Source: Candidatus Kerfeldbacteria bacterium
GTDB lineage: Bacteria > Patescibacteriota > Patescibacteriia > SBBC01
Direction of reading: 5' to 3'
Assembly (NCBI GenBank): GCA_016207275.1
Contig: JACQPY010000018.1
Span: 23,960-87,959 of the forward strand
Length of the DNA: 64,000 nucleotides
In this document: piece by piece, positions 2,209 through 62,882 of the stretch
Layout: the number at the start of each line of letters is the position of its first letter
Position numbering within the stretch: the stretch's first letter is position 1
Program-made: the position numbers and the translations under genes
The notes under the pieces: generated by a model
Databases searched by the model: none
What the model was told of the DNA's origin: nothing
The model's input: the letters and a program-made list of their open reading frames with translations, nothing else

Positions 2209-2222
<14 letters not shown>
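1818..2222 (-). CDS. Hypothetical protein (DUF3052-like)
   Basis: 134 aa starting MPRANVAGYSKKKLADKLGL. I recall a resemblance to DUF3052 small proteins but cannot confirm it. Confidence 0.4.
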
Positions 2223-5772
<3,550 letters not shown>

Positions 5773-5829: not shown

Positions 5830-5946
5830 CCTTCCCTTGTCAATCACCTTCCCTTGTCCCCTCCTGACTTCAGGAGGGGCACGCTTTATCGAACCCCCTC
5901 TTCAATTGAGGAGGGGTGTCCCGAGCACCCCCGACTCGATCGGGGG
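5830..5946. repeat. Family-1 palindromic repeat cluster R2 between the ileS start and the DUF559 gene's 3' end
   Basis: Contains a direct repeat cttcccttgt x2 and three hairpins: cccctcctg-actt-caggagggg, cccctc-ttcaattgag-gagggg and cccccga-ctcga-tcggggg. Confidence 0.65.
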
Positions 5947-6313
5947 CGAGGGACGAGGAGGTGATGAACTCCCGCAGCCGTTCCAACGTACCGTCAAGGT
6001 TATGGAGCACGTCATCGTTCGTGAACCTGACAACTCGAAAAAACATCGATTGTAACCACGCTGTTCGTCTGCGATCGTAGGCTTGCTGGTGTACGGCCCC
6101 GTGGGAATCACCATCAACTTCGACTACCAACCGAAGTTCACGACAATAAAAATCGGCAATGTAGTTGCCAATGCTGTGCTGGCGACGAAATTTCAACCCC
6201 ATAAACTGCTTCGTCTTCAAAGCATTCCACAAAACGACTTCTGCTTTGGAGCTATCCCGCCGAAGCGACCGACGCCGGTCAACGTATTTTGTCAGATTGT
6301 AAATTCGTGGCAT
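5870..6313 (-). CDS. DUF559 endonuclease-domain protein (Vsr-like fold); its C-terminal tail is encoded by the R2 repeat
   Basis: LWNALKTKQFMGLKFRRQHSIGNYIADFYCRELRLVVEVDGDSH is typical of DUF559. The last ~30 codons overlap the hairpin repeats. Confidence 0.75.
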   Translation of the reverse strand: MPRIYNLTKYVDRRRSLRRDSSKAEVVLWNALKTKQFMGLKFRRQHSIGNYIADFYCRELRLVVEVDGDSHGAVHQQAYDRRRTAWLQSMFFRVVRFTNDDVLHNLDGTLERLREFITSSSLAPDRVGGARDTPPQLKRGFDKACPS

Positions 6314-8236: not shown

Positions 8237-8312
8237 GGATGACCCCGCACCTCTTCCGCTGACGGACATATCAGTCAGGAAAACAACGGATTTGGGGAAA
8301 AGGTGCGGGGTC
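8237..8312. repeat. Family-2 palindromic element overlapping the argS stop codon
   Basis: cgggatGACCCCGCACC-[~50 nt]-GGTGCGGGGTCAcatc has 11-bp inverted arms. The argS TGA is the revcomp of the tca inside the right arm. Confidence 0.6.
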
Positions 8313-12028: not shown

Positions 12029-12109
12029 GCCTTGACATTCATCTGCTACTCGTCCACACTACCCCTCGCTCGGCCTTCCCCCGCTCTGACCACTTGGTGG
12101 TCGGAGCGG

Positions 12110-12523
12110 GGGGATGCTCAAATGTTGATGCAACCTTGACAAGCTACCATTGCACGGCGTAGCGCCGGAACCTACGTAAAAATTCCGGAAATGATAAGTG
12201 CCAAGACACTGATCAGCAAGCTAAAGACGCTGAAGGATAACTTCTCCGTCCCACAGTTTGCCCCGTCGTTCGCCTAACCCCGAATTAATTCGGGGCCGAA
12301 CGGCCATCCGTCTGGCCGATGCCGATAAGCCAGAGCCGGGTGTAATATCTTTCGGCTGGCCAACATTGTGCTCCACGATGTTGGTAAGAACTCGGAGCTA
12401 GTGACGTCGGCGTCTGGTCTGCCTCTAAGCAGGCGTCACGAACAACCCTGAGGTGGACGAACCGTGTGGACTGTGGTAGAGTGTTGGTTGCAGACGCGGG
12501 CGCACGACCCGCCATCTCCACCA
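12110..12523 (+). ncRNA. ssrA: Candidate tmRNA (ssrA), about 414 nt
   Basis: - It lies immediately downstream of smpB.
- The 5' GGGGATG pairs with the 3' CATCTCC, including a G3:U70 wobble, followed by ACCA.
- A T-arm-like GCGGG-cgcacga-CCCGC abuts the 3' acceptor strand.
- A helix-2-like pairing forms between TGCAACC (~12130) and GGTTGCA (~12487).
- An internal frame ends ...PQFAPSFA-TAA (12275-12277), followed by a perfect hairpin ccccgaattaattcgggg. Confidence 0.7.
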
Positions 12524-12528
12524 CGTAA

Positions 12529-12547
12529 AGTCCCGCCTGCGGCGGGA
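12529..12547 (+). terminator. GC-rich hairpin directly after the tmRNA 3' end
   Basis: The hairpin is gtcccgcc-tgc-ggcgggac with no T-tract. Confidence 0.4.
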
Positions 12548-12699
12548 CCACGTGGCGCGGCCAGCGCCTCGTGCTACGCGAAGCGTAGGTACGTGGTGAG
12601 TCGCGTCCGCGAAGCGGTTTACGCGACCACCAGTTAAGAGGTTAACAGCACCTCAAAAAATAAATGAGGATTCATGGTGGCGCGTAACGTATCACCACC

Positions 12700-12981
12700 A
12701 TGCACTACGTCTACCTTCTTGAAGATCAAGTTGATCGCGGCTGGTACATCGGTTACTCAACCAAGCCGGTCCCGCGACTTGATCAACACCGCTCCGGTCT
12801 TGTATATTCAACACGATTGAAGCAGGCGCTGCGCATCATCTACGTCGAGGGTTACCTCAACAAATTCGATGCCCTCGGCCGGGAACGTTTTCTCAAGAGT
12901 GGAGCTGGCCGACGATTCCTTAGAAAGCAACTTAAACACCACCTGGAAGACCAAAACAAAACACCGCTAACTTACCCCTAA
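12700..12981 (+). CDS. GIY-YIG nuclease family small protein
   Basis: 93 aa. MHYVYLLEDQVDRGWYIGYSTKPVPRLDQHRSG is the GIY-YIG signature. Confidence 0.7.
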   Translation: MHYVYLLEDQVDRGWYIGYSTKPVPRLDQHRSGLVYSTRLKQALRIIYVEGYLNKFDALGRERFLKSGAGRRFLRKQLKHHLEDQNKTPLTYP

Positions 12982-12991
12982 CCCTTCCGCC

Positions 12992-13504
12992 ATCAGCAGC
13001 CCCGCCCTCCGCGTTAATCGTCTCATCCGCGCGCCGGAAGTCATGCTCATCGATGAGCAAGGAAAGTCCCACGGCGTCGTGACGACGGACGAAGCGCTCC
13101 GCCTGGCCGCTGAACGGGGGTTTGACTTAGTCGAAGTCGCGCCCCACGCTCGGCCGCCGGTCTGCAAGCTGCTCGACTTCGGCGCGTACCAGTACCGCCT
13201 AGAAAAGCAGGAACGGAAATCAAAGGCCCACGCCAAGCGAATCGAGGTCAAGGGTGTCCGGCTGTCGTTCAAGATCGGTGACCACGATCGGCAGGTGCGC
13301 CTGCACACCGCGCGCCGGTTTCTTGACGAAGGACACAAAGTCAAGGTTGAGATGATTCTGCGCGGTCGTGAATTCGCCCATCAGAATCGTGCCCGAGAAA
13401 ACGTCAATGACTTTATTCGGCAACTGGGAGAGAAAGTATACGTCGAGCAACCAATCAGCAAGCAGGGTAACAAATTATTCACCGTCATCGGAGAAAAGAA
13501 ATGA
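12992..13504 (+). CDS. infC: Translation initiation factor IF-3, probably with a non-AUG start
   Basis: The ORF-track ATG is at 13043, but the conserved N-terminus (..VNRLIRAPEVMLID) is encoded upstream in frame from a stop at 12968-70. A candidate ATC/ATT-type start lies near 12992, as is known for infC autoregulation. The start is uncertain. Confidence 0.85.
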   Translation: MSSPALRVNRLIRAPEVMLIDEQGKSHGVVTTDEALRLAAERGFDLVEVAPHARPPVCKLLDFGAYQYRLEKQERKSKAHAKRIEVKGVRLSFKIGDHDRQVRLHTARRFLDEGHKVKVEMILRGREFAHQNRARENVNDFIRQLGEKVYVEQPISKQGNKLFTVIGEKK

Positions 13505-13581
13505 TTCCGCCTCAGCGGAATCATCCCGAGCCACTCCGGCGAAGGATCTCCAATGAACCATCAGTTTGAAATCATTCTTCC

Positions 13582-13806
13582 ATGAAGCTAAAAACGCACC
13601 AAGCCACGGCCAAACGCTTCCGCGTCACCCGACGCGGCAAGGTTCTCAAACGGGCGGCTGGTCAAGACCACTTCAACTCCCGTGATCCCGGGAGAATCAC
13701 GCTGCGCAAACGCCGCGACCGCACCATCGCCAAGGTTGATACTCGCGCGCTCCAGCATCTCCTACCCTACGCCAAGATCAAACCCGCCGCCAACCGTGAC
13801 TTTTAA
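13582..13806 (+). CDS. rpmI: 50S ribosomal protein L35
   Basis: MKLKTHQATAKRFRVTRRGKV...LLPYAK matches L35. Confidence 0.9.
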   Translation: MKLKTHQATAKRFRVTRRGKVLKRAAGQDHFNSRDPGRITLRKRRDRTIAKVDTRALQHLLPYAKIKPAANRDF

Positions 13807-13835
13807 CCATGCGGCCTTTGTAGCCACGCTAACAA

Positions 13836-13855
13836 CGCGGACTTAAGTCCGCGCT
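13836..13855 (+). promoter_or_regulatory. Perfect hairpin between rpmI and rplT
   Basis: gcgcggac-ttaa-gtccgcgc. It may be an attenuator or L20-feedback structure, or an internal terminator. Confidence 0.3.
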
Positions 13856-13862
13856 CCACACT

Positions 13863-14210
13863 ATGCGCGTCAAACGCGGCATCATCCACAAAAAACACGT
13901 CAAGAACATCCTCAAACATGCTAAAGGCTACCGTTGGCGTCGAAAAACTTCGGTTAAGCTCGCGAAGGTCGCGGTCACCCACGCCGGCTGGAACGCCTAC
14001 AAACACCGCCGAACCAAAAAGCGCGATTTCCGGCGGCTCTGGCAGATCCGGATCAACGCCGGCGCGCGACAGAATGGCATTACCTACTCTCGGCTAATAC
14101 CGTTGCTCAAAGCCAAGAAGATCGAGCTCAACCGAAAGGTTTTAGCCGAACTGGCGGCCAAACACCCTCAGGTCTTTGCCGAGGTCGTCAAGGTCGCGCA
14201 GGCAAAGTGA
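13863..14210 (+). CDS. rplT: 50S ribosomal protein L20
   Basis: MRVKRGIIHKKHVKNILKHAKGYRWRRK...RKVLAELAAKHPQVF matches L20. Confidence 0.95.
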   Translation: MRVKRGIIHKKHVKNILKHAKGYRWRRKTSVKLAKVAVTHAGWNAYKHRRTKKRDFRRLWQIRINAGARQNGITYSRLIPLLKAKKIELNRKVLAELAAKHPQVFAEVVKVAQAK

Positions 14211-14214
14211 AGCT

Positions 14215-14320
14215 CCACGGCCTCACGGCCGTGGTTTCTCTCGATCCGTGGTTCCGTGGAGCGGAACCCCGCACCGTCCCGACCGCACAAGCGCGTCGGG
14301 ACTGGTGCGTGGGTAAAACA
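14215..14320. repeat. Family-2 element copy A (with a conserved upstream hairpin block) between the convergent rplT and PRTase genes
   Basis: ccacggcc..ggccgtgg and ggttccg-tggag-cggaacc are followed by AACCCCGCACC-gtcccgac...gtcgggac-TGGTGCGTGGGTAA. This is near-identical in layout to copy C at 25521-25608. Confidence 0.6.
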
Positions 14321-14392
14321 ACTTCATTGCAGGCAGGTTGAAGCCGGTCACATCCATGTGGACCGGCTCCTTAGTGCTGACGAACTTCCCTC

Positions 14393-14980
14393 CTAGGCGA
14401 CGACCGCCACCGCTTGCATTTTCCTGACGCGAGCTTGCATCACCCGTTCCCAGAGCTCCCACGGATAGAGCCGATAGCGTGGATCGATCTCCGCCGCGAA
14501 GATGTCCGGCTTGCGCTCCGGGAAGATGTTGCATTCGGACTTGAAGTGCAGCGTGATGGTGGTGAGGCTCCGAGGGCTGGCGTCCATGATGCGGTGCTGA
14601 GCCCGGACGTTGCTCTTGCCGGTCTCCCACACTTCATCGAACAGCCCGACATTCTTGTCGCGGAGATCCTCGTCCGAAGGAAAGTAGACGATCTTCGGCG
14701 AGGGTGAATCCCGCTCCGACAACCCTGTCTCCTCGCGCCTCAAGCGGGCATAGGCCACCTTGTTGTGGTCGAGCACGCGCTCAACGAGTGAGACGAAGTG
14801 GGTGGCGCCGTGTTTGATCGCCACGATCGTGTCGAACGGACCGAGTTTCTCGATCCGCGGCACAAGCTGGAGCACGACCTCCTGCGCCAGCAAGCCGACT
14901 TCGGACCATGACACGTAAACCTCGTTCGGCTCAATCAGACTGCGCGGATCAATGCCGTCTACCACCTGCAATTCATTCAT
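14393..14980 (-). CDS. Phosphoribosyltransferase-domain protein (start at the internal MNELQVV preceded by GGGAGG)
   Basis: VGLFDEVWETGKS resembles the PRTase PRPP-binding loop. The longer ORF-track N-terminus is S/R-rich junk that overlaps element A. Confidence 0.45.
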   Translation of the reverse strand: MNELQVVDGIDPRSLIEPNEVYVSWSEVGLLAQEVVLQLVPRIEKLGPFDTIVAIKHGATHFVSLVERVLDHNKVAYARLRREETGLSERDSPSPKIVYFPSDEDLRDKNVGLFDEVWETGKSNVRAQHRIMDASPRSLTTITLHFKSECNIFPERKPDIFAAEIDPRYRLYPWELWERVMQARVRKMQAVAVVA

Positions 14981-15209
14981 ACCGCCTCCCTGGGGTTCAG
15001 TGGTCGAAAATGCAGACGAGCGATGCTGCGTAGTGCAGCGTTTCGGTTTTGGTTTCCCTCCTGTGGTGGACCAATAAAACACGCGAGGGCGCGGTTGCGC
15101 CCCCAAGGCTTCACTGTCTTCGTTTCTGGTTCCGCTTGATCGGCGGGATCTCCATAGGTATTTAGTAGCATGGCCGCGCTGATCTGACAACCAGGGAGTT
15201 TTCCCCAGG

Positions 15210-15596
15210 CTAGAGCTTACTGCTCGGCGCAGTCATCCGCCGTCGAATGGCCAGGCCGCTCAGCACACCGACCAGGTCAATCGCCGCGTCAACCGGCGCC
15301 CCGTGCCGGCCAGGGACGAAGGTTTGGTGCCATTCATCAATCCCGGCGTAGCCAGCGCTCAGGACCGCGGCCAAGACCACTGCCCGCGCCCGCGGCAGGC
15401 CGCTAACCTCGAACGCCCGAAACATCAGCCCGCCGAGAATGGCATACTCAGCCAGGTGAGCAATCTTCCGTAGGATTATATCCCACAGCGGCAGCAACCC
15501 TGAACGGAGGTCAGGAATCGACGACCAGATAAAAATCACCGTCATCCACCCGCTGACGTAGACCCAGGCCCACAGGCGCTGTTGAGACAAAGTCAT
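15210..15596 (-). CDS. VanZ-like membrane protein
   Basis: 128 aa with 3-4 TM helices and AHLAEYAILGGLMFRAF typical of the VanZ family. Confidence 0.6.
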   Translation of the reverse strand: MTLSQQRLWAWVYVSGWMTVIFIWSSIPDLRSGLLPLWDIILRKIAHLAEYAILGGLMFRAFEVSGLPRARAVVLAAVLSAGYAGIDEWHQTFVPGRHGAPVDAAIDLVGVLSGLAIRRRMTAPSSKL

Positions 15597-15680
15597 ACTT
15601 CATCGGTACCATAGCGGTCAACCCTCGACAAGCCCAGCCATGTTTGCTAAAATCGTCCTGCTCAAGAACGTGCGCGGAGC

Positions 15681-15702
15681 GGACCGTTAGTGTAGTGGTT
15701 AA
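15681..15702 (+). other. Displaced 5' fragment of a tRNA-Asp-like gene (acceptor strand plus D-arm)
   Basis: GGACCGT-TA-GTGT-AGTGGTTAA parallels the start of the intact tRNA-Asp but stops at a family-2 element. The matching 3' half is at ~15917-15958. Confidence 0.45.
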
Positions 15703-15742
15703 CCCCGCACCAATTCTCGCTTCGCTCGAATGGTACGGGGCA
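15703..15742. repeat. Family-2 element (CCCCGCACC-aattctcgcttcgctcgaa-TGGTACGGGG)
   Basis: Inverted arms enclose a TTCG-containing core. The same subfamily is found at cobA (56188-56236) and prfB (44119-44165). Confidence 0.6.
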
Positions 15743-15772
15743 AGCACGCCTCCCTTGCAAAGCGCCCAGAGC

Positions 15773-15847
15773 GGACCCATAGTGTAGCCCGGTTAACACG
15801 TCTCCCTGTCACGGAGAAGATCAGGGGTTCAAATCCCCTTGGGTCCG
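15773..15847 (+). tRNA. tRNA-Asp (GTC)
   Basis: Cloverleaf: acceptor GGACCCA/TGGGTCC, U8A9, D-stem GTGT/ACAC, anticodon stem TCTCC/GGAGA with loop CTGTCAC, variable AGATC, T-arm AGGGG-TTCAAAT-CCCCT, discriminator G. Confidence 0.8.
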
Positions 15848-15869
15848 CTCTGAGCGCAGCCTCCCTGCC

Positions 15870-15919
15870 TGCCCCGCACTTGTGACCCTGAGCCAGTCGA
15901 AGGGGAACATAGTGCGGGG
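15870..15919. repeat. Family-2 element with a nested gaccc-hairpin core
   Basis: CCCCGCACT-tgtgaccctgagccagtcgaaggggaacat-AGTGCGGGG. The inner part matches the family-3 H2 motif. Confidence 0.55.
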
Positions 15920-15958
15920 TCACGGAGGAGATCACGGGTTCGACTCCCGTACGGTCCG
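15917..15958 (+). other. tRNA-Asp-like 3' half (anticodon loop 3' side, variable loop, T-arm, acceptor 3' strand)
   Basis: TCAC-GGAGG-AGATC-ACGGG-TTCGACT-CCCGT-ACGGTCC-G. Its acceptor strand complements GGACCGT at 15681-15687. Confidence 0.45.
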
Positions 15959-16022
15959 CTCCGCGCATGCGTCTCCCTGCTGCGCCCCGTCTACGCAAAC
16001 GTAGTGAGCGTTGTACGGGGCC

Positions 16023-16062
16023 TGCCCCGCACTTGACTCGAAGAGGCATAGTGCGGGGTCAC
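16023..16062. repeat. Family-2 element (short-core variant)
   Basis: CCCCGCACT-tgactcgaagaggcat-AGTGCGGGG followed by tcacggag. Confidence 0.5.
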
Positions 16063-16326
16063 GGAGCCCAGTACCACGTAGGGTGCTGGGCAAGAAGACC
16101 TGTCCCGTAAATGAGCGAAGCGAATTATACGGGATCAGGGGTTTCCCGCCACAATAATTTCAAAATTCTAAGGAAGGCGGGATCCCCGCCTGCCGAAGTC
16201 TCGCACGGCGGGCAGGCCGCCGAACTTGTCCCGTCGAATAACGGGATGGCGGGACAAATCCGGTCGGATCCGCCAAGAAAACTTAGTATCGAGCAATCCG
16301 ACAACACCGACGGTTGAATAAAGTTT

Positions 16327-17280
16327 ATGAGGACAAAGAAGACGGCAGTCGTCACGGGTGGAGCAGGATTCATCGGCCACCATCTTTGCGCAAGACTTCT
16401 GGACAATGGGTACCGAGTTGTTTGTCTGGATAACTTCTCTAGCGGCAGGCCAGAGAATGTTCGACCGTTTCGTGGTCACTCACGATTTACTTTTTATCGT
16501 CGTGACATTACCCGGCCACTTCGTTTACGTGAAGATGTCGATGAAATATACAACCTGGCATCACCGGCATCCCCTGTCGATTACCAGCATCGGCCAATGG
16601 ACACGGTGCAGGCTAATACCCTTGGTGTCTATCGGGTGGTCGCGTTAGCTCTACAAAAACGTGCCAAGCTGTTGCAGGCTTCGACCTCGGAGATCTACGG
16701 GGATCCCCTGGAACACCCGCAACCCGAGACGTACCACGGTAATGTTAATCACCTTGGTGTGCGCGGGTGTTATGAAGAAGGAAAACGCATTGCGGAAACG
16801 ATTTTTTCAATCCACCATCAGACCTACGGCCTTCGGTTACAAATCGCCAGGATATTCAATACCTACGGTCCCGGGATGCGCGAAAACGACGGGCGCGTCA
16901 TTCCGGAATTCATTTACGCCGCTCTTCGGAACCAGCCGCTGACGGTCTACGTCGGATCGCAGACGCGCTCTTTCTGTTATGTTGATGACCTGATTAAGGG
17001 CCTTATCAGATTACAGAGAGTTCCAAAATACATTGATCCGGTAAACATCGGCAATCCTAAAGAAATATCCATGCTACAACTTGCTCGTCGGGTTATTCAA
17101 ATGACCAATTCGAAAAGCCGGATCAGAATTTTGCCTAGTCAAACAGACGACCCGCGCCAACGCAAACCGGATGTTCGTAAGGCATCTCATTTCCTGAAAT
17201 GGTCCCCGGACACCAATTTTGACCTTGGCCTTCGCCGAACCATAGACGATTTTCGAAATAGATTCACTGCGGAATCTTGA
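16327..17280 (+). CDS. NAD-dependent epimerase/dehydratase, UDP-glucuronate decarboxylase (UXS)-like
   Basis: VVTGGAGFIGHHL ... YNLASPASP ... ASTSEIYGDP is the extended SDR / UXS pattern. The gene has lower GC than its surroundings. Confidence 0.85.
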   Translation: MRTKKTAVVTGGAGFIGHHLCARLLDNGYRVVCLDNFSSGRPENVRPFRGHSRFTFYRRDITRPLRLREDVDEIYNLASPASPVDYQHRPMDTVQANTLGVYRVVALALQKRAKLLQASTSEIYGDPLEHPQPETYHGNVNHLGVRGCYEEGKRIAETIFSIHHQTYGLRLQIARIFNTYGPGMRENDGRVIPEFIYAALRNQPLTVYVGSQTRSFCYVDDLIKGLIRLQRVPKYIDPVNIGNPKEISMLQLARRVIQMTNSKSRIRILPSQTDDPRQRKPDVRKASHFLKWSPDTNFDLGLRRTIDDFRNRFTAES

Positions 17281-20692: not shown

Positions 20693-21721
20693 ATGACCAA
20701 ACCCACCAAGCGCGACCTGCTCAAACAACCGATCGAACACATCGACATCACCAAGCTCAATGCCACGCCGATTGTCGAGGCGTACAAGAAAATGTCCTTT
20801 TCTTCACGCGACCTCGGTCGAGCGAGCGACATTTACAATATGATGCTAGCCGACAAAGACTCGTCGGTTTGGCTGACGATTGCTGGTAGCACATCAGCAG
20901 CCGGCTGCATGCAGGCCTACGTCGATTTAGTAAAACACAACATGATCGACGTCATCGTGGCCACGGGGGCGACCATTGTCGATATGGACTTTTTCGAGGC
21001 CCTCGGCTTTAAACACTATAAAGGCACGCCGTACATTGACGACGCCATGCTCCGCTCGCTGTACATCGACCGCATCTACGACACCTTCATCGACGAGGAA
21101 GAACTGCAAGCCTGCGACAAAACCATCACCGCCATTGCTGACTCACTCGAACCGCGGCCTTACTCGTCGCGCGAGTTCATCTGGGAAATGGGCAAGTGGC
21201 TGACTAAAAATTCCAAGAAAAAGGATTCGCTGGTCCAAGCCGCCTACGAGCACAACGTGCCGATCTTCTGTCCGGCGTTTTCCGATTCCTCGGCTGGTTT
21301 CGGTCTGGTCATGCATCAAGACAAGCATCCGGACAAACACGTCTCGATTGACTCGGTCAAAGACTTTCGCGAGCTGACTGACATCAAGCTGAAGAGCAAA
21401 GACTCCGGCCTGTTAATGATCGGCGGCGGCGTGCCAAAAAACTTTGCCCAGGATACTGTCGTCTGCGCCGAAGTGCTCGGCCACGACGTGCCAGTGCACA
21501 AGTACGCCATCCAAATCACGGTGGCTGATGTCCGCGACGGCGCCTGCTCATCGTCGACGCTCAAGGAAGCCAGCTCCTGGGGCAAGGTTTCGACGGTCTA
21601 CGAGCAAATGGTCTTTGCTGAAGCGTCTATGGCCTTGCCCTTGCTCGCTGCGTATGCCTACGAAAAGGGATCGTGGAAAAACCGCAAGCCTCGCGAGTTC
21701 GCGAAACTGTTCAGGAAGTGA
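20693..21721 (+). CDS. Deoxyhypusine synthase-like protein (homospermidine-synthase-like)
   Basis: 342 aa with LLMIGGGVPKNF and the NAD-binding DHS fold pattern. Confidence 0.7.
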   Translation: MTKPTKRDLLKQPIEHIDITKLNATPIVEAYKKMSFSSRDLGRASDIYNMMLADKDSSVWLTIAGSTSAAGCMQAYVDLVKHNMIDVIVATGATIVDMDFFEALGFKHYKGTPYIDDAMLRSLYIDRIYDTFIDEEELQACDKTITAIADSLEPRPYSSREFIWEMGKWLTKNSKKKDSLVQAAYEHNVPIFCPAFSDSSAGFGLVMHQDKHPDKHVSIDSVKDFRELTDIKLKSKDSGLLMIGGGVPKNFAQDTVVCAEVLGHDVPVHKYAIQITVADVRDGACSSSTLKEASSWGKVSTVYEQMVFAEASMALPLLAAYAYEKGSWKNRKPREFAKLFRK

Positions 21722-22062
21722 TGGCGCACGCGTACCGCCAGGTCATCATCAGTGCGACGAGCAAGAAGGAAGCTGAATCGCTATCGGCGTTGTTGCTGAA
21801 AAAACGACTCATCGCTGGATCACTCATCATTCACGGACCATCACAGTATTGGTGGCAGCGGAAAATAGTTAAGAAAACTTACTACAATATCCAAGCGTTC
21901 ACTGTCTCCTCAAAGAAAAAGACGATTATCGCACAAGTCAAGCGCTACCACTCCGACAGGGCACCAATCATCGCGTTTGTTCAAATCGACGGAAATACGG
22001 AATTCAAGAAATGGATCGACGAATCCGTGCATAGTCAAACGTCAAATGTCATCCTTCGATAA
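21721..22062 (+). CDS. cutA: CutA1 divalent-cation tolerance protein
   Basis: MAHAYRQVIISATSKKEAESLSALLLKKRLIAGSL...YWWQRKI. The ATG overlaps the DHS stop (ATGA). The longer ORF-track start is rejected. Confidence 0.7.
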   Translation: MAHAYRQVIISATSKKEAESLSALLLKKRLIAGSLIIHGPSQYWWQRKIVKKTYYNIQAFTVSSKKKTIIAQVKRYHSDRAPIIAFVQIDGNTEFKKWIDESVHSQTSNVILR

Positions 22063-22150
22063 TACTCAGGATGACTCCGTACTTCACAGGGAAACAAGAA
22101 ATATGTCCATCAGACAGCGTCTCGGGATGACCCTGAGCGAAGTCGAAGGG
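22028..22150. repeat. Family-3 composite element (GTCAAACGTCAAATGTCA + catcc-hairpin + gaccc-hairpin) spanning the cutA 3' end and the agmatinase 5' end
   Basis: catccttcgataatactcaggatg and cgggATGACCCTGAGCGAAGTCGAAGGGTCAaaagttaaacg. A second copy is at 55375-55600. Confidence 0.55.
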
Positions 22151-23071
22151 TCAAAAGTTAAACGTAGTATTCTCCACGACACCGGCTCCCGCGGCTTCCT
22201 CAACCTGCCTAACCACCGCGACTTCAAGCGCTCGAAAGTCGTAGTCGTGCCGTTCGGTTTGGAAAAATCCGTCACCTTCGGCCATGGAACCTCAAAAGGT
22301 CCGGCCGCCATCATTGCGGCCAGTCACGAAGTCGAACTCTACGACGAACAGTTCAAAAACGAACCGTACAAACGTTACGGCATTGCCACCCTTAAACCAT
22401 TCCCCATACCCCACTCCCATCGTCGTGCACTAGAACTTCTCACCGATCTAACAGCCCGGTTGCTTCGACGTAAAAAATTCCCCATCATCCTCGGCGGCGA
22501 ACACTCGCTGACTGGCGGTTCAGTCGCTGGTATGGCCAAGGTTTTTGGCCGACGCGGTTTTAATATTCTCCACTTTGACGCACACACTGACCTACGACCG
22601 TCGTTTCAAGGCAACAAGCTAAGCCACGCCTCAGCCCTGCACCTGGCTATCCCCTACTTCCACCGTTTGGTTCAAATCGGCATCCGCAATACCTCCACCG
22701 AGGAACAGCCGATCATTCGCCGCTTGACCAAAGCCCGCCGTTTACAAATTTTCACCGCTGAGGACATTCTGCGTGCTAACAACACCGCCTACTTAACCAA
22801 AGCTATGGACTTTCTGCGAGACCGGCCAGTCTGGTTAACCTTTGACGTTGATGTCTTTGATCCGGCCATCATCGGTTCGAGCACTGGCACGCCCGAACCC
22901 GGCGGTTTATGGTGGTACGGCGTGCTTGACGCCCTCCAGGCAGCCACCAAACAACTCGACATTATCGGCGCCGAATTCGTCGAACTTTTGCCAAAACCGG
23001 GCCAGCAAGCGCCGGATTTTATCGTGGCCAAGCTCATCTACCAATTCCTGAATTTCAGGTTCGCGGCTTGA
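22103..23071 (+). CDS. speB: Agmatinase / arginase-family ureohydrolase (start uncertain: 22046, 22103 or 22127)
   Basis: GGEHSLT, HFDAHTDL and DVDVFDPA..TGTPEPGG are the Mn-binding motifs. The N-terminal ~15 codons are encoded by the family-3 repeat. Confidence 0.8.
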   Translation: MSIRQRLGMTLSEVEGSKVKRSILHDTGSRGFLNLPNHRDFKRSKVVVVPFGLEKSVTFGHGTSKGPAAIIAASHEVELYDEQFKNEPYKRYGIATLKPFPIPHSHRRALELLTDLTARLLRRKKFPIILGGEHSLTGGSVAGMAKVFGRRGFNILHFDAHTDLRPSFQGNKLSHASALHLAIPYFHRLVQIGIRNTSTEEQPIIRRLTKARRLQIFTAEDILRANNTAYLTKAMDFLRDRPVWLTFDVDVFDPAIIGSSTGTPEPGGLWWYGVLDALQAATKQLDIIGAEFVELLPKPGQQAPDFIVAKLIYQFLNFRFAA

Positions 23072-23696: not shown

Positions 23697-23750
23697 AGCG
23701 CGGAACCCCGCACCCGTCCCGCCAGCGGGCGGGACTGGTGCGTGGGTCAA
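23697..23750. repeat. Family-2 element copy B
   Basis: AACCCCGCACC-cgtcccgcc-agcg-ggcgggac-TGGTGCGTGGGTCA. It marks the left edge of an AT-rich islet. Confidence 0.6.
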
Positions 23751-38259: not shown

Positions 38260-38643
38260 CTATTCCAGCAGTCTTTTCCTAAATGCTGATAATTGATTTC
38301 CAAGTTCTGCCGCGCTCGACAGTACTTCATCGCGTTCTTGGTGGGTGAGGCAGCCACAATCAACAGCCACATCACAACAGGCAACAACTTCATTCAAAGA
38401 GGCTAGTGCATAATTAAGAAAGAGCGCAAAATCCTTGTCCGAACTTCGATTCGATCCTTCGGCAATGTTGAGGACGATTGAGTTTGCTGCCCGCAGCAAC
38501 TGCGCCGTAAGAATGTATCTCTCACCATCCGGAAATGATCGCGCGTAACGACGAACGTGACTGACAAATTGTCGTGCTAACTGGTAGACGGTGAATTTTC
38601 TAAATCGAAACTTTCTATCGATATCAAATACCATTCTGGTCAA
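38260..38643 (-). CDS. Four-helix-bundle protein (23S rRNA intervening-sequence protein family)
   Basis: YILTAQLLRAANSIVLNIAEG ... LASLNEV is diagnostic for this family. Confidence 0.75.
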   Translation of the reverse strand: MTRMVFDIDRKFRFRKFTVYQLARQFVSHVRRYARSFPDGERYILTAQLLRAANSIVLNIAEGSNRSSDKDFALFLNYALASLNEVVACCDVAVDCGCLTHQERDEVLSSAAELGNQLSAFRKRLLE

Positions 38644-48781: not shown

Positions 48782-49192
48782 ATGCCGCCACATTTTTTAT
48801 ACAACAACCCGTCGTTTAAGCGACGACGGCAAAAGCTGCGAAACAAGTCAACACCGGCTGAACGAAAACTTTGGGGACATCTTCGAAAAAGTCAGTTGTT
48901 GGGCTTAAAGTTCCAACGGCAGTATGGGATCGGCCCGTACGTGCTTGATTTCTTTTGTCCGGAATTACGACTGGCAATTGAAGTTGACGGCGACTCACAT
49001 TTCACGCCCGACGCCCGCGCCTACGATCAGCAACGTCAACAATTCATCGAGAACGAGGATATCGCCGTGGTCAGGTTTCTCAATACCGACATTCACGAGA
49101 ATATGGATGGCGTGCTAACAAAGCTAGGCGAGGTAGTGATGTCTCTTACCACCCCTTGTTCCCCTCCTACGCTAGGAGGGGAGACTTGCTAA
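48782..49192 (+). CDS. DUF559 endonuclease-domain protein (copy 2); its C-terminal tail is encoded by repeat R6
   Basis: LWGHLRKSQLLGLKFQRQYGIGPYVLDFFCPELRLAIEVDGDSH matches DUF559. The tail ..TTPCSPPTLGGETC lies in the hairpin. Confidence 0.75.
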   Translation: MPPHFLYNNPSFKRRRQKLRNKSTPAERKLWGHLRKSQLLGLKFQRQYGIGPYVLDFFCPELRLAIEVDGDSHFTPDARAYDQQRQQFIENEDIAVVRFLNTDIHENMDGVLTKLGEVVMSLTTPCSPPTLGGETC

Positions 49193-56168: not shown

Positions 56169-56187
56169 AGAGTACTGCGCCGACGCA

Positions 56188-56236
56188 TGCCCCGTACCGG
56201 ACTCCGAGCGAAGTCGAGGAGGACTGGTGCGGGGTA
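56188..56236. repeat. Family-2 element immediately upstream of the adenosyltransferase gene
   Basis: CCCCGTACC-ggactccgagcgaagtcgaggaggac-TGGTGCGGGGTAGG, with a TTCG core like the tRNA-Asp and prfB copies. Confidence 0.55.
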
Positions 56237-56368: not shown

Positions 56369-58042
56369 CTATGCCTCACATGCACCCTCGCACAATTTCG
56401 TCTGGCTGAATTTTTGCGCGGCGTTCGTGCTGTGCTGGTAGTACAGAGTTTTAATCCCTTTTTGCCAGGCCTGGATGTACAGATTATTAATGTCCTTGGC
56501 CGAGGTCTTCGGATTGATCATGAGATTCAGCGATTGACCCTGATCAATGTGGTACTGACGGGAAGCGGCTTGCTCGATAATCACGGCTTGGTTAATTTCC
56601 GGGAAGGTCTTAAATACCTCTTTTTCATGGTCGGTCAGGAAATCAAGATGCTGGACCGAACCGTCGCGGTCGCGAATCGAGGACCAGACCTCTTTCGTAT
56701 TTTTCCCTTTTGACTCCAGCAGCTTCGCCAGGAACGGATTCTGAATCGTGACTTTCATTTTATCGATATCCTTGACGTAACAGTTCGACCAAACCGGCTC
56801 AATGCTCTGTGACACCTGACCCAAGATAAAAGCCGAGGAGGTCGTCGGCGCGACCGCGTTGAGCGTCGTATTCCGCCGGCCGTAGCCCTCTAACAGTGAC
56901 GGTTCGCCGTATTTTTTCGCCAGTTCTTCTGAGGCGCTATAAGAACGCTCTTGAATGAAGCGAAAGATCTGTACATTCAGCTTGTTGGCTTCCAGGCTTT
57001 CGAACGGAATCATCTTTGACTGCAAGTACGAATGCCAGCCCAGCACGCCCAGCCCGAGCGCGCGGTTGGCGACCGCAAAATTATACGCCCGTTCCATAAA
57101 AAAGAAGGCTTTGCGATCTTCGTCGCGCTCGGAGTCCCGCAAGCCCTCTAACTTGGCGATGAAATCGGTCATGACCGCGTCCAGGAAATAGACCATCGTT
57201 TCGACTGCGTCGGTCTGTTTCCACTCGTCGCAATGGAGAATATTCATGGAGGACAAATCGCACACAAACGACCAGTCGGCGCGAGTCGGCAACATGATTT
57301 CCGAACACAGATTACTATGCCTGATCGTCAGCTGTTTATCCTTGTACACGTCGACCGTGTTCCGGTTGACCGTATCGGTAAAAAAGATATACGGATAGCC
57401 CATCTCGACGCGGCGCTGAAGAACCTTGGCCCAAATCCGGCGCTTGGCGCTGTCGCCGTCGACCATGGCTTGCATCCAGCTGTCCGTCACCGTCACCGCG
57501 TGCGTCAATTCCTGAATCGGGTTGCCCTCCGTGCCGATGTCGAGAAAATCCTCGATGTCCGGATGCTCGACCGGCAGATACGGCGAGAAGTGGCCGCGGC
57601 GAGTTGATCCCTGGCTGACGACGTTGACCATCGATTCGAATAAACGCATAAAGTGGACCGAGCCCGACGACGTGCCGTTGTCCGTAATCGCCGCGCCGCG
57701 CGGACGCAGTTCCCCGAAGTACCCGGCTGTCCCCCCGCCGAATTTGCTCATCATGCCGACTTCCGCCAAGACGTTCAGAATGTTTCCCATGTTGTCAGGG
57801 ATATGCGAGGCAAAACAACTGATCGGCAACCCCTTTTTCAATCCAAAGTTCGCCCAAATCGGCGTCGACAACGAGTAGAACCCTTTCGACATGTACTCAT
57901 AAAACTTGTCGGCAAAACCGGCTTGTCCGAGGATCGTTTCGGCTCGATCGGCAATGAATCGGATGCGCTCCTCCGGGGTAACGCCGGTGGTCAGATACCC
58001 TTTGTTCAGAAACTTCCGACTATTTTCGTTCAGCCAGTTCAT
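56369..58042 (-). CDS. nrdA: Ribonucleoside-diphosphate reductase large subunit (class I, short form without an ATP-cone)
   Basis: NLCSEI active-site motif and a C-terminal Cys pair. At 557 aa it lacks the N-terminal ATP-cone. Confidence 0.85.
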   Translation of the reverse strand: MNWLNENSRKFLNKGYLTTGVTPEERIRFIADRAETILGQAGFADKFYEYMSKGFYSLSTPIWANFGLKKGLPISCFASHIPDNMGNILNVLAEVGMMSKFGGGTAGYFGELRPRGAAITDNGTSSGSVHFMRLFESMVNVVSQGSTRRGHFSPYLPVEHPDIEDFLDIGTEGNPIQELTHAVTVTDSWMQAMVDGDSAKRRIWAKVLQRRVEMGYPYIFFTDTVNRNTVDVYKDKQLTIRHSNLCSEIMLPTRADWSFVCDLSSMNILHCDEWKQTDAVETMVYFLDAVMTDFIAKLEGLRDSERDEDRKAFFFMERAYNFAVANRALGLGVLGWHSYLQSKMIPFESLEANKLNVQIFRFIQERSYSASEELAKKYGEPSLLEGYGRRNTTLNAVAPTTSSAFILGQVSQSIEPVWSNCYVKDIDKMKVTIQNPFLAKLLESKGKNTKEVWSSIRDRDGSVQHLDFLTDHEKEVFKTFPEINQAVIIEQAASRQYHIDQGQSLNLMINPKTSAKDINNLYIQAWQKGIKTLYYQHSTNAAQKFSQTKLCEGACEA

Positions 58043-58069
58043 TAGGTGATGTTGATTAACTCATCCCGG

Positions 58070-59356
58070 TTAAAATAAGTCCTCGCTGGTGATACTCTGA
58101 CTGCGTTTGTGGTAATTGATCGACCGTTTGACAAAAAAATCACCATGCTTGGTAGCAATGATCTCGTCGTTGAACCATTCCGTTCTTTCCAGTTCTTTTA
58201 TGTCAACCGGAAAGAGTCGCTCCAGGCCGATGCTGACCAGAGAATTGTTCAGCCGATGTTTGATAAATTCTTTCACGACGTTGCTCGGCAGAAAATCGAG
58301 TTCCCCGGCCTCAAAAATCCAATCCACAATTTTCGCTTCCGCGGCAAAAGCTTCACGGCACAACTGCCTGATGTCTTCGCGAGACTGTTCATCAAACCAT
58401 TCTGGGTGTTCTCGCTGAATAATATTGATCACATCGATTCCGAACAACCCGTGAATCTGTTCCTCCTTCGAGGTTGCTTCGACGGCGTTGGAGACCCCTT
58501 TAAAGACATTCCGATACTTATTGAAGGACATGATAATCAGGAATTGCGAGAACAGGGATACGTGCTCAATAAACAATGAGAACAACAGAATTGCCCGTGC
58601 ATACTCGCGCGGGCTGTCGCTCTTGGCGTTGGCTATTGCTTTCTCCAAATATGCAATCCGTTCCATGATGACCGGAACATCTTTGATCTTGGTGAATTCT
58701 TGATTCAACCCGAGGATCTCAAGCAAATGCGAATAGGCATCGTAGTGCCGCACTTCACTTTCGGCGAAGGTGTAGCCGACTGCTCCGATCTCCGGTTTTG
58801 GCAACTTCTTAAAAATGTCCCCCCAGAATGTTTTGACCGCGACTTCGATCTGGGCAATGGCCAACATCGCATTCTTGATCGCACTCCGCTCAACCGGATT
58901 GACGTTAACCTTAAAGTCTTGAATGTCGCTGGTAAAGTTGAATTCGGTGTGAATCCAATATGAGTGCCGGATGGCGTCAGTGTATTCCGCCAGTTCGGGG
59001 TACTCGTGCGGCTTGAGATTCATTCGTTTCTTAAAAATATCCCGCTGGCGTTCTTGGGCGTGTTTTTCTCGGTACAAAATATACGCCTTGGCCACGTCAT
59101 GAAAACTGCTGTCCATCAGCGCTTCTTCTACGGCATCCTGTATCTTCTCGACGCTGGGGACGTTACCGCTAGCATCCACGCCGTCTGTTCCGGTGTACGT
59201 GGCCTGCAGTTTCCGTTCAACCTCTTGGGAAATCCGCTGGGCGTCTTCGAGGGTGCCGTGTCCGGCCGCTTGCATGGCCGAAAAAACCGCCTTGGTTATT
59301 TTTTCCAATACAAAGGGTGTGACCGTGCCGTCTCTCTTTTGAATATGGTTGAGCGT
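58070..59356 (-). CDS. nrdB: Ribonucleotide reductase small subunit (ferritin-like R2) with an N-terminal ATP-cone; probable GTG start
   Basis: The ATP-cone is IQKRDGTVTPFVLEKI...VEKIQDAVEEAL. The R2 part has EVRHYDAYSHLLE and IEHVSLFSQF metal ligands. The ORF-track N-terminal extension overlaps repeat R8. A GTG preceded by AAAGGA is a better start. Confidence 0.8.
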   Translation of the reverse strand, partial: TLNHIQKRDGTVTPFVLEKITKAVFSAMQAAGHGTLEDAQRISQEVERKLQATYTGTDGVDASGNVPSVEKIQDAVEEALMDSSFHDVAKAYILYREKHAQERQRDIFKKRMNLKPHEYPELAEYTDAIRHSYWIHTEFNFTSDIQDFKVNVNPVERSAIKNAMLAIAQIEVAVKTFWGDIFKKLPKPEIGAVGYTFAESEVRHYDAYSHLLEILGLNQEFTKIKDVPVIMERIAYLEKAIANAKSDSPREYARAILLFSLFIEHVSLFSQFLIIMSFNKYRNVFKGVSNAVEATSKEEQIHGLFGIDVINIIQREHPEWFDEQSREDIRQLCREAFAAEAKIVDWIFEAGELDFLPSNVVKEFIKHRLNNSLVSIGLERLFPVDIKELERTEWFNDEIIATKHGDFFVKRSINYHKRSQSITSEDLF

Positions 59357-59487
59357 CACGAAGATTGTCCTTTCATAAACAACAGACTTGGCTCGAGCCA
59401 AGTTCGTGTACCGCAGGACAACCTGCGCCAAGCTTAGCGCGAGCCAAAGTGCGGACCCTTGAATGGGTGCATAGACGAGATCGGGCT

Positions 59488-59535
59488 CACCCCTCCCCTT
59501 CGACCTCCCCAAGGGGAGGGGTCGGGGGTGGGGTC
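59488..59535. repeat. Family-1 hairpin R8 between nrdB and nrdJ
   Basis: cccctcccctt-cgacctcccc-aaggggagggg is an 11-bp stem, followed by tcgggggtggggtctacc. Confidence 0.6.
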
Positions 59536-59627
59536 TACCGTTGCGCGACAGCGCTGGAGTTACACCAGCTTCACCGTCTAACCGCTTCGATTTGTTAAAG
59601 TTACCTAACCGCTAAACCAGGCAAACC

Positions 59628-61904: not shown

Positions 61905-62059
61905 GTTGTCGAGGAGCGCGTCGTCGTCCTGACGCTTTCGTCCGTCAACCAGGGCGTCGGTAATAATCTCCTTAAGTTTTTGCTGGTCGATCGGCTGCTG
62001 CTGAACGAGCTTGCGTGGATGGACGGAACCGTTCATACGGGTGGTGATGCGAAATGTGG

Positions 62060-62587: not shown

Positions 62588-62882
62588 CGGCGCTCCTTTA
62601 GACGGTCGGTGAGGCCGGTCGACGGCATAAAATCTGCCCACCCGCCAGTTCCGACACCCTACCAAACCTCCATTCCTACAATATCTTGTGCCTCTACCGG
62701 GTAGTATACTACTAAATATGGGGTCGGTCAAGAACCACGCCCGCGTCTTCGGCGGGTTTTGTATCCGCCACTCGGAAAAAACAACAGCCCGTTCATCATA
62801 AACCTTCTGGCCCTCTCTGTCCTGTGGATAAAACAGCTATCAGCGCCTAGCCGCTAGCTTTCAGCCGCCTGCTGCTGGCCGC

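Follow-up and report, generated by a model that had tools for sequence, protein, structure and literature searches.

The 64-kb stretch of DNA analysed here (the window) comes from the chromosome of a Candidatus Kerfeldbacteria bacterium, an uncultured, ultra-small member of the Patescibacteria (candidate phyla radiation, CPR). It contains a tRNA-Asp gene that lies among the pieces of a second tRNA-Asp gene and a series of short hairpins. This locus raises the question of whether the outer pieces are exons that are rejoined in RNA, a scaffold that is kept in the transcript, or the remains of a gene broken by insertions. It is rather probable that the locus is a DNA-level palimpsest of selfish DNA at a tRNA-Asp site, not a new kind of intron. 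From comparison with related sequences, the inner tRNA-Asp (15773-15847) is favoured as the sole working gene at the locus, and the outer halves as the former resident tRNA-Asp, which remains uninterrupted in a close relative (contig L095).

One tRNA-Asp inside another

A single tRNA is called in the whole 64 kb by ARAGORN and Rfam, the intact 'B1-type' tRNA-Asp(GTC) at 15773-15847 (RF00005, 69 bits). As the original prediction had stated, this gene is flanked by the split halves of a second copy, and both the 5' fragment at 15681-15702 and the 3' half at 15920-15958 can be read in the sequence. From the putative promoter to the end of the outer copy, the parts are as follows.

15625-15653, plus strand: promoter-like box TCGACA-17-TAAAAT with an extended -10 TG, the sole such site in 15500-16400
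15671-15702, plus strand: 5' part of the outer ('A-type') tRNA-Asp, with a paired leader (15671-15680) and the acceptor and D-stem 5' strands and D-loop (15681-15702)
15703-15744, minus strand: hairpin hp1 (15703-15740) and CAAG, in the D-loop at about position 20/21
15745-15755, plus strand: outer piece CACG-CCTCC-CT, comprising the D-stem 3' strand, G26, the anticodon-stem 5' strand, C32 and U33
15756-15859, plus strand: inserted inner unit of 104 nt, with leader TGCAAAGCGCCCAGAGC, tRNA-Asp(GTC) at 15773-15847 and trailer CTCTGAGCGCAG
15860-15867, plus strand: second anticodon-stem 5' strand and loop, CCTCC-CTG, of which the first 7 nt are the right copy of CCTCCCT
15868-15919, plus strand: hairpin hp2, CCTG and CCCCGCACT..AGTGCGGGG, between G34 and U35 of the outer anticodon
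15920-15958, plus strand: outer 3' half, TCAC GGAGG AGATC ACGGG TTCGACT CCCGT ACGGTCC G
15959-15968, plus strand: paired trailer of the outer gene

The outer 5' fragment, GGACCGT TA GTGT AGTGGTTAA, is the same as the 5' part of the intact L095 gene. The predicted complementarity of the outer acceptor strands extends into the leader and trailer, giving a 17-nt, 100% inverted repeat (I2, 15671-15687/15951-15967). The leader of the inner unit also pairs with its trailer, lengthening the acceptor stem (I3, 18 nt, 94%). The second CCTCC-CTG at 15860-15867 pairs with GGAGG at 15924-15928 in the minimum-free-energy fold, and 15660-15975 folds as nested cloverleaves with z = -7.6. With the inserts removed, the outer gene is a 73-nt tRNA-Asp(GTC) for which ARAGORN draws a perfect cloverleaf. 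As the exon joins were picked by eye, this result shows only that all parts exist and are compatible.

A 7-nt direct repeat, CCTCCCT, brackets the inner unit, its left copy being at 15749-15755. The repeated anticodon 5'-stem motif 'CCTCCCTG' described earlier does recur, but its first occurrence reads CCTCCCT-T (15749-15756) and its third TCTCCCTG (15972-15979). The proposed boundaries of the elements, CCCTG on one side and TCACGGAG on the other, hold for hp2 and hp4 but not for hp1, which lies in the D-loop between GGTTAA and CAAG-CACG. Covariance and heuristic gene finders, which had been proposed as a check, call only the inner tRNA, and a permissive Rfam scan of 15550-16400 returned the inner tRNA and otherwise noise; the flanks are nevertheless clearly not random. 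A TCGACA..TGnTAnAAT box is also present upstream of the locus in L095, L096, L100, L101, and L104, and the promoter-like box at 15625-15653 would drive the entire mosaic as one transcript. No T-tract terminator was found within the locus.

Two other readings of this sequence were rejected. An alternative Glu/Asp joining, in which the first CCTCC-CTT and TCAC would give tRNA-Glu(TTC), uses a T that is the first base past the 7-nt repeat and has no support from a relative. A 116-aa open reading frame (ORF) at 15699-16049 on the minus strand was dismissed as a gene, as its blastp 'homologs' at L090 7294-7560 (minus) and L092 5454-5834 (plus) reflect shared tRNA sequence. Mechanical ORFs over the mosaic in the window, L090, and L092 match one another at 50-57% in blastp via translated tRNA-Asp and hairpin sequence, and gene callers could mis-annotate them as conserved hypothetical proteins.

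The mosaic does not end with the outer gene but reaches ~16275, with at least seven hairpins and the 3' remnant of an older tRNA-Asp. The three elements originally noted are thus present but incomplete as a count, since hp3, a degenerate hairpin at 16067-16090 (read before as a pseudo-T-arm), hp5, hp6, and others up to 16254 have to be added. Covariance-model scores in the following list refer to the hairpin family described below.

15971-15984, plus strand: first piece of the oldest remnant, with G26, the anticodon-stem 5' strand and the start of the loop (G TCTCC CTG), then CTGCG
15985-16024, plus strand: hairpin hp3 (15985-16020) and CCTG, a 40-nt block missing from L095; covariance-model match at 15981-16020, 33.3 bits
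16025-16058, plus strand: hairpin hp4 of the hp2 subfamily, 42.5 bits, also in L095
16059-16098, plus strand: middle of the oldest remnant, with TCAC-GGAG from the loop and 3' stem strand of the anticodon arm, then a degenerate hairpin and a variable-loop remnant, ~93% identical to L095
16099-16134, plus strand: hairpin hp5, CCTG and TCCCGTA..TACGGGA, a 36-nt block of 36.5 bits, missing from L095 and at the same site in L096
16135-16274, plus strand: T-arm and acceptor of the oldest remnant, TC-AGGGG-TT, a T-loop insert and CAAAT-CCGGT-CGGATCC-G-CC

The tRNA pieces of the remnant (G-TCTCC-CTG .. TCAC-GGAG .. AAGA .. TC-AGGGG-TT .. CAAAT-CCGGT-CGGATCC-G) are split by hp3, hp4, the degenerate hairpin, hp5, hp6, and others. 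The first piece has an ortholog in L095, G CCTCC CTA CTGCG. The flanks of hp4, GCCTGCCCCGCACTTG and CATAGTGCGGGGTCACGGAG, are 100% identical to those of hp2, and the degenerate hairpin, CCCAGTACC..GGTGCTGGG, is followed by the variable-loop remnant CAAGAAGA. The T-loop insert consists of hp6 (TCCCGCC..GGCGGGA, 16144-16182) and more hairpins up to 16254, among which a ~32-nt hairpin at ~16186-16217 is specific to the window. The remnants of the window and L095 are ~93% identical save for three clean indels of 40, 36, and ~32 nt, each of which is one whole hairpin. In the window the remnant has lost its T-stem pairing and has no 5' partner, with CCGGT/CGGATCC in place of the CCCCT/TGGGCCC of L095. 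Properties of this kind belong to pseudogene layers rather than to maintained exons.

Related loci, hairpins, and nuclease genes

Relatives of the locus were collected in two ways. Metagenome contigs were queried with the tRNA-Asp 3' half with a preceding G at position 33, which does not occur in normal tRNAs, and four distinct loci with a GC content from 38% to 52% were obtained. The nested layout is found in at least five other lineages. L092 is the simplest case, as its complete outer tRNA-Asp has a sole interruption at G34/U35, consisting of CCTG and a CCCCGC..GCGGGG stalk whose loop contains a whole, different tRNA-Asp. In L093 and L094 as well as L092, a whole tRNA-Asp sits within the stalk of a family-2-type hairpin (the type to which hp2 belongs) at 34/35, an arrangement that bears out the earlier suggestion of a composite element-tRNA-element insertion. 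In L093 and L094 the D-loop additionally contains hp1, and the anticodon stem is interrupted by an AT-rich insert. L090, whose sequence recurs in a separate record as L091, has the layout of the window with an additional T-loop insert and is syntenic with it (infC 59% and rplT 61% amino-acid identity). Its outer exons, with lengths of only 4-22 nt, equal the inner tRNA in sequence. The joined outer exons form perfect tRNA-Asp cloverleaves in five lineages, with stems that differ yet are compensated. L093 contains a flavin mononucleotide (FMN) riboswitch, which supports its bacterial origin. On viral contigs, a loose 3'-half pattern returned ordinary phage tRNA-Glu and tRNA-Asp genes only, and the junction patterns gave only chance matches in GC-rich phage DNA.

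The second set was anchored by synteny and is unbiased. The gene order SmpB-tmRNA-infC-rpmI-rplT-PRTase(-)-VanZ(-), followed by the tRNA-Asp locus, is kept in 10 related contigs (tmRNA, transfer-messenger RNA; PRTase, phosphoribosyltransferase). The 10 syntenic loci vary between a plain tRNA and nested copies that contain an ORF, and exactly one intact tRNA-Asp is present in every complete locus. The tRNA-Asp sites of several relatives are as follows.

L095: outer gene of the window intact, one base off the joined exons (AGATC vs AGACC); hp1, the inner unit and hp2 all lacking; the ortholog of the third remnant of the window comes after it
L096: intact inner tRNA in an outer copy with at least six inserts; D-stem damaged, acceptor mismatch GGGCCCA vs TGGGCAC
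L099, L100, L097: plain tRNA-Asp
L102: site without a tRNA
L108 (a relative of L090): inner tRNA and trailer, followed by TCTCCCTG, CCTG-hp2 and sequence without relation to the locus; outer 3' half gone

The intact L095 gene, only one base different, favours the view that the outer gene of the window is dispensable and was probably broken recently. It also bears on the earlier idea of a tRNA-targeting insertion with target duplication. This is in keeping with the inner unit, which is flanked by CCTCCCT and has an intact counterpart of its target in L095, but it does not extend to the hairpins, where no duplication is found.

The hairpins form one family. Eighteen copies, oriented as a 4-nt motif plus hairpin, were aligned and used to build a covariance model. 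The unit consists of the tetranucleotide CNTG and a 9-bp GC-clamped stem, CCCCGYACY/RGTRCGGGG, which is 96% paired with double-sided changes in 6/9 pairs, a level reached by none of 500 shuffles. The model finds six strong copies in the window, five of them within the 432 nt of 15703-16134 and one at 56186-56234, and weak copies at ~8243, 43998, and 44118. The window holds only 1-4 copies outside the locus. Extra copies outside the training set were detected in ordinary intergenic DNA of relatives (L104 508, L102 2580, L095 4086). Hairpins of the form CCCCGCAC..GTGCGGGG have two exact-pattern matches against none in 100 shuffles. The score of hp2 is 35.1 bits on the plus strand. For hp1, a CTTG-plus-hairpin unit on the bottom strand, the model gives 46.5 bits in the minus orientation against 14.5 in the plus orientation. 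As the hp5 loop, GAGCGAAGCGA, is also the reverse complement of the hp1 loop, the same element is present in both orientations within one presumed transcript.

Three comparisons of filled and empty sites revealed clean insertion of the 4-nt motif and hairpin with no target duplication. The flanks of the insertion sites are only loosely conserved (..TG or ..GA | T-Y/A-A), and in tRNA terms the sites are the D-loop, 34/35, the variable loop, and the T-loop, as well as positions beside earlier hairpins. The hp1 site is occupied alike in L104, L096, L090, L093, and L094, while hp1 has no counterpart in L095. The hp2 junction CCCTG|CCTG-hairpin|TCACGGAG recurs in L090 and L108. Each unit is a single hairpin, and the distinct left-end and right-end hairpins of miniature inverted-repeat transposable elements (MITEs) of the IS200/IS605 type were not seen. 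Enrichment of the stable DNA mini-hairpin GCGAAGC was considered and discarded; it occurs in several loops, but the window holds 17 occurrences against 17.3 expected.

Family-2-type hairpins at 8243-8310 and 12079-12111, and in L102 at 2584-2614, abut the ArgRS stop codon (8311) or the G residues with which the tmRNA gene begins. The hairpin may thus double as a gene-end or processing structure there, or be tolerated as one. A second repeat family is present at 14267-14312 and 23706-23745, where a hairpin is nested in a family-2-like stem, GGAACCCCGCACC(GTCCCG..CGGGAC)TGGTGCGTGGGT. Both of these copies are intergenic, after convergent or adjacent genes.

Nuclease genes are linked to the same tRNA. 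In L101, L104, and L105, a GIY-YIG ORF of 92-127 aa (PF01541, E ~1e-13) is embedded in a tRNA-Asp copy, with an intact tRNA-Asp immediately downstream. The order in these loci is '...AGCCCGGTT', two short hairpins, 'AACAC', the GIY-YIG ORF, and the intact tRNA-Asp. In the nested loci L096, L093, and L090, which have no ORF, the AT-rich spacer and the leader of the inner tRNA resemble the 5' untranslated region (UTR) and the ORF-tRNA junction of the ORF loci. A homolog search with the tRNA-embedded nuclease returned four matches only, and more distant GIY-YIG homologs lie ~100 nt downstream of tRNA-Trp. The two short hairpins 5' of the ORF (L101 5753-5790, L104 5853-5885, L105 ~962-1003) are in the D-loop of the tRNA-Asp fragment and have UUCG, UACG, or GAAG-type loops on covarying stems. 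Loops of the UNCG type point to a role at the RNA level, for example in stabilising the 5' UTR or in processing the nuclease mRNA.

The window itself has a GIY-YIG paralog at 12700-12981 on the plus strand (93 aa, PF01541, 1e-9), located after the tmRNA gene and before infC. The syntenic gene of L104 shares 94.5% identity with it and one in L101 shares 72%, while none is called between tmRNA and infC in L095, L096, L097, or L099. A dense hairpin cluster (12524-12640) precedes it, starting right after the tmRNA 3' end. No duplicated tmRNA fragments were found around the gene, which may be a second mobile nuclease associated with a tRNA-like gene.

Copies of tRNA-Asp have exchanged roles between lineages. 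The inner type of the window (GGACCCA) shares 33 identical nt, its leader GCGCCCAGAGC plus GGACCCATAGTGTAGCCCGGTT, with the outermost, disrupted copy of L101, and L095 has the outer type of the window as its working gene. The inner copies of L092 and L094, which sit in different resident genes, and the outer copy of L093 are tRNAs of the GGRCGCG type. The L093 outer copy has a T-stem mismatch and a 3' end matching the L094 inner tRNA, which suggests that it may be a recombinant joined in the T-loop. The non-coding promoter/leader of the window is 92% identical to that of L104, with one mismatch in the last ~70 nt, and the flanking genes are 72-79% identical. By marker protein, the nearest relative of the window is L095 for L20, L35, and VanZ, but L104 for IF3, PRTase, and SmpB. 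Nucleotide identities to L095 and L104, respectively, are 90% and 76% for L20, 59% and 76% for PRTase, 79% and 72% for VanZ, and 69% and 92% for the promoter/leader. The conflicting identities over 13043-15688 would indicate sub-kilobase recombination between Kerfeldbacteria lineages or else chimeric contigs of metagenome-assembled genomes (MAGs). The contrast between the leader and the genes, together with the conflicting markers, implies that the interrupted allele moved between lineages or was recently converted.

Weighing insertion, splicing, and scaffold

The favoured explanation is a succession of insertions into DNA. A 104-nt unit with its own leader/trailer helix and a second tRNA-Asp would have inserted into the resident gene, producing the 7-nt duplication CCTCCCT of the anticodon-stem region. 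This unit may be the ORF-less remnant of a cassette made of a GIY-YIG nuclease and a replacement tRNA-Asp, in which case the window once held the nuclease ORF. Such a cassette would act like a homing element that destroys the resident gene and supplies a new copy. It would enter by homing-like repair, splitting the gene near the boundary of the D-arm and anticodon-arm, with later loss of the ORF. REP-like units (REP, repetitive extragenic palindrome) of CNTG and a 30-50-nt GC-clamped hairpin would insert afterwards or alongside, in either orientation and without target duplication, at positions encoding loops (D-loop, 34/35, variable loop, T-loop) and beside earlier copies. These hairpins presumably move as DNA, perhaps in single-stranded form, where a tRNA gene would fold and expose its loops. 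Their accumulation is attributed to the freedom of broken pieces from constraint and to the tendency of the elements to land side by side. The region 15971-16274 would be the 3' remnant of a still older tRNA-Asp layer, decaying and with at least five hairpins. The entire mosaic is probably read from one promoter, after which ordinary end-processing would free the inner tRNA and the remainder, likely without function, would be discarded.

The hairpins and the inner tRNA could instead be intervening sequences in RNA. A protein endonuclease recognising the GC-clamped hairpin bases would then remove them, and ligation of the outer exons would produce a second functional tRNA-Asp, a bacterial equivalent of the multi-intron tRNAs of archaea. 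The outer exons are indeed all present, in order, on one strand and behind a single promoter, with inserts confined to loop positions of the cloverleaf. The compensated cloverleaves of the five lineages fit this, including that of L092, whose outer gene is strongly unlike its inner copy yet has no mismatch, and so do the L090 exons that match the inner tRNA and the conservation of hp1 in sequence and position across distant lineages. L095 lacks all A-type inserts at once and precisely, as expected of intron loss via a copy of spliced RNA, and Patescibacteria tolerate introns in the tRNA-Asp anticodon loop (PMC13011429). However, an intact tRNA-Asp is always alongside, and outer copies in L096, L093, L094, L108, and the third copy of the window have stem mismatches, AT-rich non-hairpin inserts, or missing halves. 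The 'perfect' outer genes were chosen by a pattern that needs an intact 3' half. One element in both orientations within a transcript, and also in intergenic DNA, is difficult to reconcile with splicing. Furthermore, an insert between anticodon bases 34 and 35 requires exact rejoining, and this junction does not allow a bulge-helix-bulge (BHB) motif (3-nt bulge, 4-bp helix, 3-nt bulge). Between the anticodon stem and the hairpin stalk, the 5' strand has 7 nt (CTGCCTG) against 4 nt (TCAC) in the 3' strand, and pairing of CCTG with TCAC is not possible. Neither a group I or II core nor any Rfam intron family was found; RF00028 has no match in 15550-16400 even at E up to 10, the inserts are only 34-52 nt, and they follow G34 (CTG|CCTG..GGGG|TCAC) rather than the U that forms the U.G pair of P1 at group I 5' splice sites. 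Neither RtcB nor a splicing endonuclease (EndA) is encoded among the ~55 ORFs of the window, a small part of the genome. Splicing is thus quite unlikely, and the original suggestion of tiny unconventional intervening sequences is not favoured given the ever-present intact copy, the decay or deletion of outer copies, the two orientations, the intergenic copies, and the lack of a BHB or ribozyme core.

A functional scaffold is also unlikely, though some observations fit it. Here the hairpins and paired outer pieces would stay unspliced and be kept as processing stems (e.g. RNase III sites, comparable to the processing stems of rRNA), 5'/3' protective structures, or terminators of the tRNA transcript, with the family-2 hairpins a general terminator or processing hairpin of the organism and not a mobile element. 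The inner tRNA always has a covarying leader/trailer helix (18 nt in the window, 16 bp in L096, also L090, L092, and L095), and the same hairpin type follows the stop codons of ordinary genes (ArgRS, 8311) and precedes tmRNA. L108 keeps TCTCCCTG-CCTG-hp2 right after the tRNA despite having no outer 3' half, and the locus has no T-tract terminator of its own that could be found. A non-splicing role for the leader/trailer helices, and perhaps for the hp2 kept in L108, is therefore plausible. On the other hand, L099, L100, and L097 have a plain tRNA-Asp with no scaffold, and hairpin number and position vary between close relatives. A terminator needs neither a strand-asymmetric CNTG nor both orientations, and the ordered tRNA-Asp fragments between the hairpins are left unexplained. 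Scars of an integrase, i.e. partial duplications of the attL/attR type from decayed phages or islands, are very unlikely. Genes for tRNAs are classic integration sites and 15971-16274 resembles an att duplication in running from near the anticodon stem to the 3' end. However, no integrase or island genes are in or beside the locus in the window or any relative, 5' fragments are duplicated too, and hairpin indels are unrelated to att recombination. The copies are nested in ~300 nt, with all fragments within 0.6 kb, and flank no kilobases of foreign DNA. Mis-joining of repeated tRNA-Asp and hairpin sequence in a MAG is hardly credible. Contig ends of relatives do fall within these repeats, with L101, L104, and L108 terminating at the locus and Logan contig L001 beginning at ~16133 of the window, but the same nested order was obtained independently from different samples, assemblers, and lineages, including two records of one sequence (L090 and L091) and the layouts of L092, L093, L094, and L096. 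The inner and outer copies of the window also differ at many positions, which speaks against a collapse or chimera through k-mer identity.

Several observations weigh against a succession of insertions. The window locus (15600-16330) has no GIY-YIG ORF, and tblastn matches only the paralog at 12700-12972, so that a cassette origin rests on homology of layout. The 64-kb window encodes no HUH/RAYT (RAYT, REP-associated tyrosine transposase) or IS200-type TnpA transposase that could mobilise the hairpins. The metagenome query demanded an intact 3' half, which makes the four 'perfect' outer genes a biased sample. Because the six markers conflict, gain and precise loss cannot be polarised by a species tree. 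Moreover, hp1 is at the exact same D-loop position with ~80-85% identity in lineages from 38% to 55% GC, for which a conserved function would fit as well as a site-specific mobile element. The L090 exons of 4-22 nt are short for gene conversion, suggesting either a very recent event or selection. Finally, hp5 occurs in the window and L096 but not L095, which requires precise loss or parallel insertion.

Known systems and the surrounding chromosome

The biology of REPs with RAYTs and of IS200/IS605 elements is the closest mechanistic model for the hairpins. Like REPs, REPINs, and IS200/IS605 hairpin MITEs, the units are short, GC-rich imperfect palindromes with a covarying stem and a tetranucleotide 5' of it, which is CNTG here and GTAG in classical REPs. 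Copies are also extragenic, clustered, and in both orientations, although only 1-4 lie outside the locus in the 64 kb. Apart from the stem they lack terminal inverted repeats, and the three filled/empty comparisons gave no duplicated target, with flanks that are only loosely conserved. In contrast to REPs and REPINs, no cognate transposase is encoded in the 64-kb window, copies are sparse outside the locus (~1 per 10 kb), and the loop varies strongly in sequence and in L092-L094 accommodates an entire tRNA gene. To our knowledge, a strong preference for loop-coding positions of one tRNA gene has not been described for REPs.

SegB of phage T4 is a GIY-YIG homing endonuclease that recognises the conserved TΨC motif of tRNA genes and drives co-inheritance with flanking tRNA genes (PMC2330249). 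The loci described here similarly have a GIY-YIG gene among or inside tRNA genes, presence/absence among relatives, and mosaic flanks, and co-inheritance with tRNA genes matches a cassette that carries its own tRNA-Asp. The putative nuclease differs in having 92-127 aa, approximately the catalytic domain alone, with no obvious DNA-binding domain. Its ORF is inside the tRNA gene, in the D-loop/anticodon region, rather than intergenic, and belongs to a CPR chromosome, not to a phage genome. At the tRNA-Asp locus of the window, the ORF was either lost or never present. Mitochondrial hairpin elements and GC clusters of sponges and fungi have conserved stems and variable loops, invade compact genomes, are mostly intergenic but sometimes in RNA genes, and can form tandem double hairpins (PMC2800124). 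They are organellar, reportedly remain part of the transcript at non-critical sites of rRNA, and are not tied to one tRNA, nested gene copies, or a nuclease gene.

Disrupted tRNA genes of archaea and red algae include those with multiple non-canonical introns and split and permuted tRNAs (PMC4033280, PMC3978253, PMC3728597). The window locus resembles them in its short inserts at several loops, in being missed by standard finders, and in exons that rejoin in silico. The host is a bacterium, however, as indicated by tmRNA and SmpB and by the FMN riboswitch of L093, and no BHB is possible. An uninterrupted isoacceptor is always inside or beside the interrupted copies, which decay, and inserts are found outside tRNA genes as well. 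Closest in host are the self-splicing group I introns at 35/36 of tRNA-Asp and tRNA-Asn in Patescibacteria (Nakagawa et al., mSystems 2026; PMC13011429). These were found with RF00028, validated in vitro, and interrupt the only gene copy in the tested genomes (PMC13011429). The phylum, the tRNA-Asp, the anticodon-loop site, and the failure of standard annotation are shared, but the window has 34-52-nt hairpins at 34/35 after a G, no core, and an intact copy alongside. Hairpin inserts, nested tRNAs, and GIY-YIG genes are not mentioned in that study (PMC13011429). The literature searched contains no account of a bacterial tRNA gene nested in the anticodon loop of its own second copy.

If successive insertion is the right explanation, selfish DNA in CPR bacteria specialises on one essential RNA gene and spares its host through a replacement copy. 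It would combine a tiny GIY-YIG cassette with a family of REP-like hairpins whose loop can accommodate a whole tRNA, and repeated invasions would produce 'Russian-doll' layers of tRNA-Asp. A palimpsest of this kind would explain why tRNA-Asp loci break assemblies in these genomes, and its outer copies should be counted neither as genes nor as introns. Genomes of ~1 Mb would thereby provide a compact natural setting in which to study homing and hairpin transposition, and tRNA-shaped loops of single-stranded DNA may be a target of hairpin elements. If splicing were true, it would be the first case in Bacteria of tRNA splicing that depends on protein and not on a ribozyme, overturning the view that self-splicing ribozymes are their only means of removing tRNA introns. 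There would be several introns per gene, one of them in the anticodon (34/35), a tRNA encoded in the intron of another tRNA, and an intron-loss allele in the intact L095 gene.

Genes of the window include those of SmpB, tmRNA, IF3, L20, ArgRS, and IleRS, and the nearest homologs of L20 are from Kerfeldbacteria or Patescibacteria. A scan of reference genomes anchored on the downstream epimerase gene returned no relatives, the epimerase being ~50% identical across all phyla. Downstream of the locus, at 20693-23071 on the plus strand, a deoxyhypusine synthase homolog (PF01916, 3.5e-97) adjoins an arginase/agmatinase-family gene, and the pair is also 3' of the tRNA-Asp locus in L095 and L100. Two small DUF559 genes with a Vsr-like endonuclease fold (PF04480), at 5870-6313 on the minus strand and 48782-49192 on the plus strand (E = 2e-34 and 6e-29), are possibly further selfish nuclease genes in this very small genome. 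A '23S rRNA intervening-sequence protein' gene (38260-38643, minus strand; PF05635, 1.6e-28) lies apart from any rRNA gene and adjoins the competence gene ComEC. An IleRS-like gene of 1187 aa (2209-5772, minus strand) has a histidine-phosphatase domain (PF00300, residues 515-678) within its catalytic domain. Lastly, 56369-62731 on the minus strand encodes two proteins like the large subunit of ribonucleotide reductase (830 aa with a TSCPD domain, and 557 aa). Between their genes lies that of a small subunit with a fused ATP-cone, and NrdR is encoded upstream. Matches of the 557-aa protein are confined to the N-terminal domain and the final third of the barrel domain, and its gene is possibly split or the site of an intervening element.

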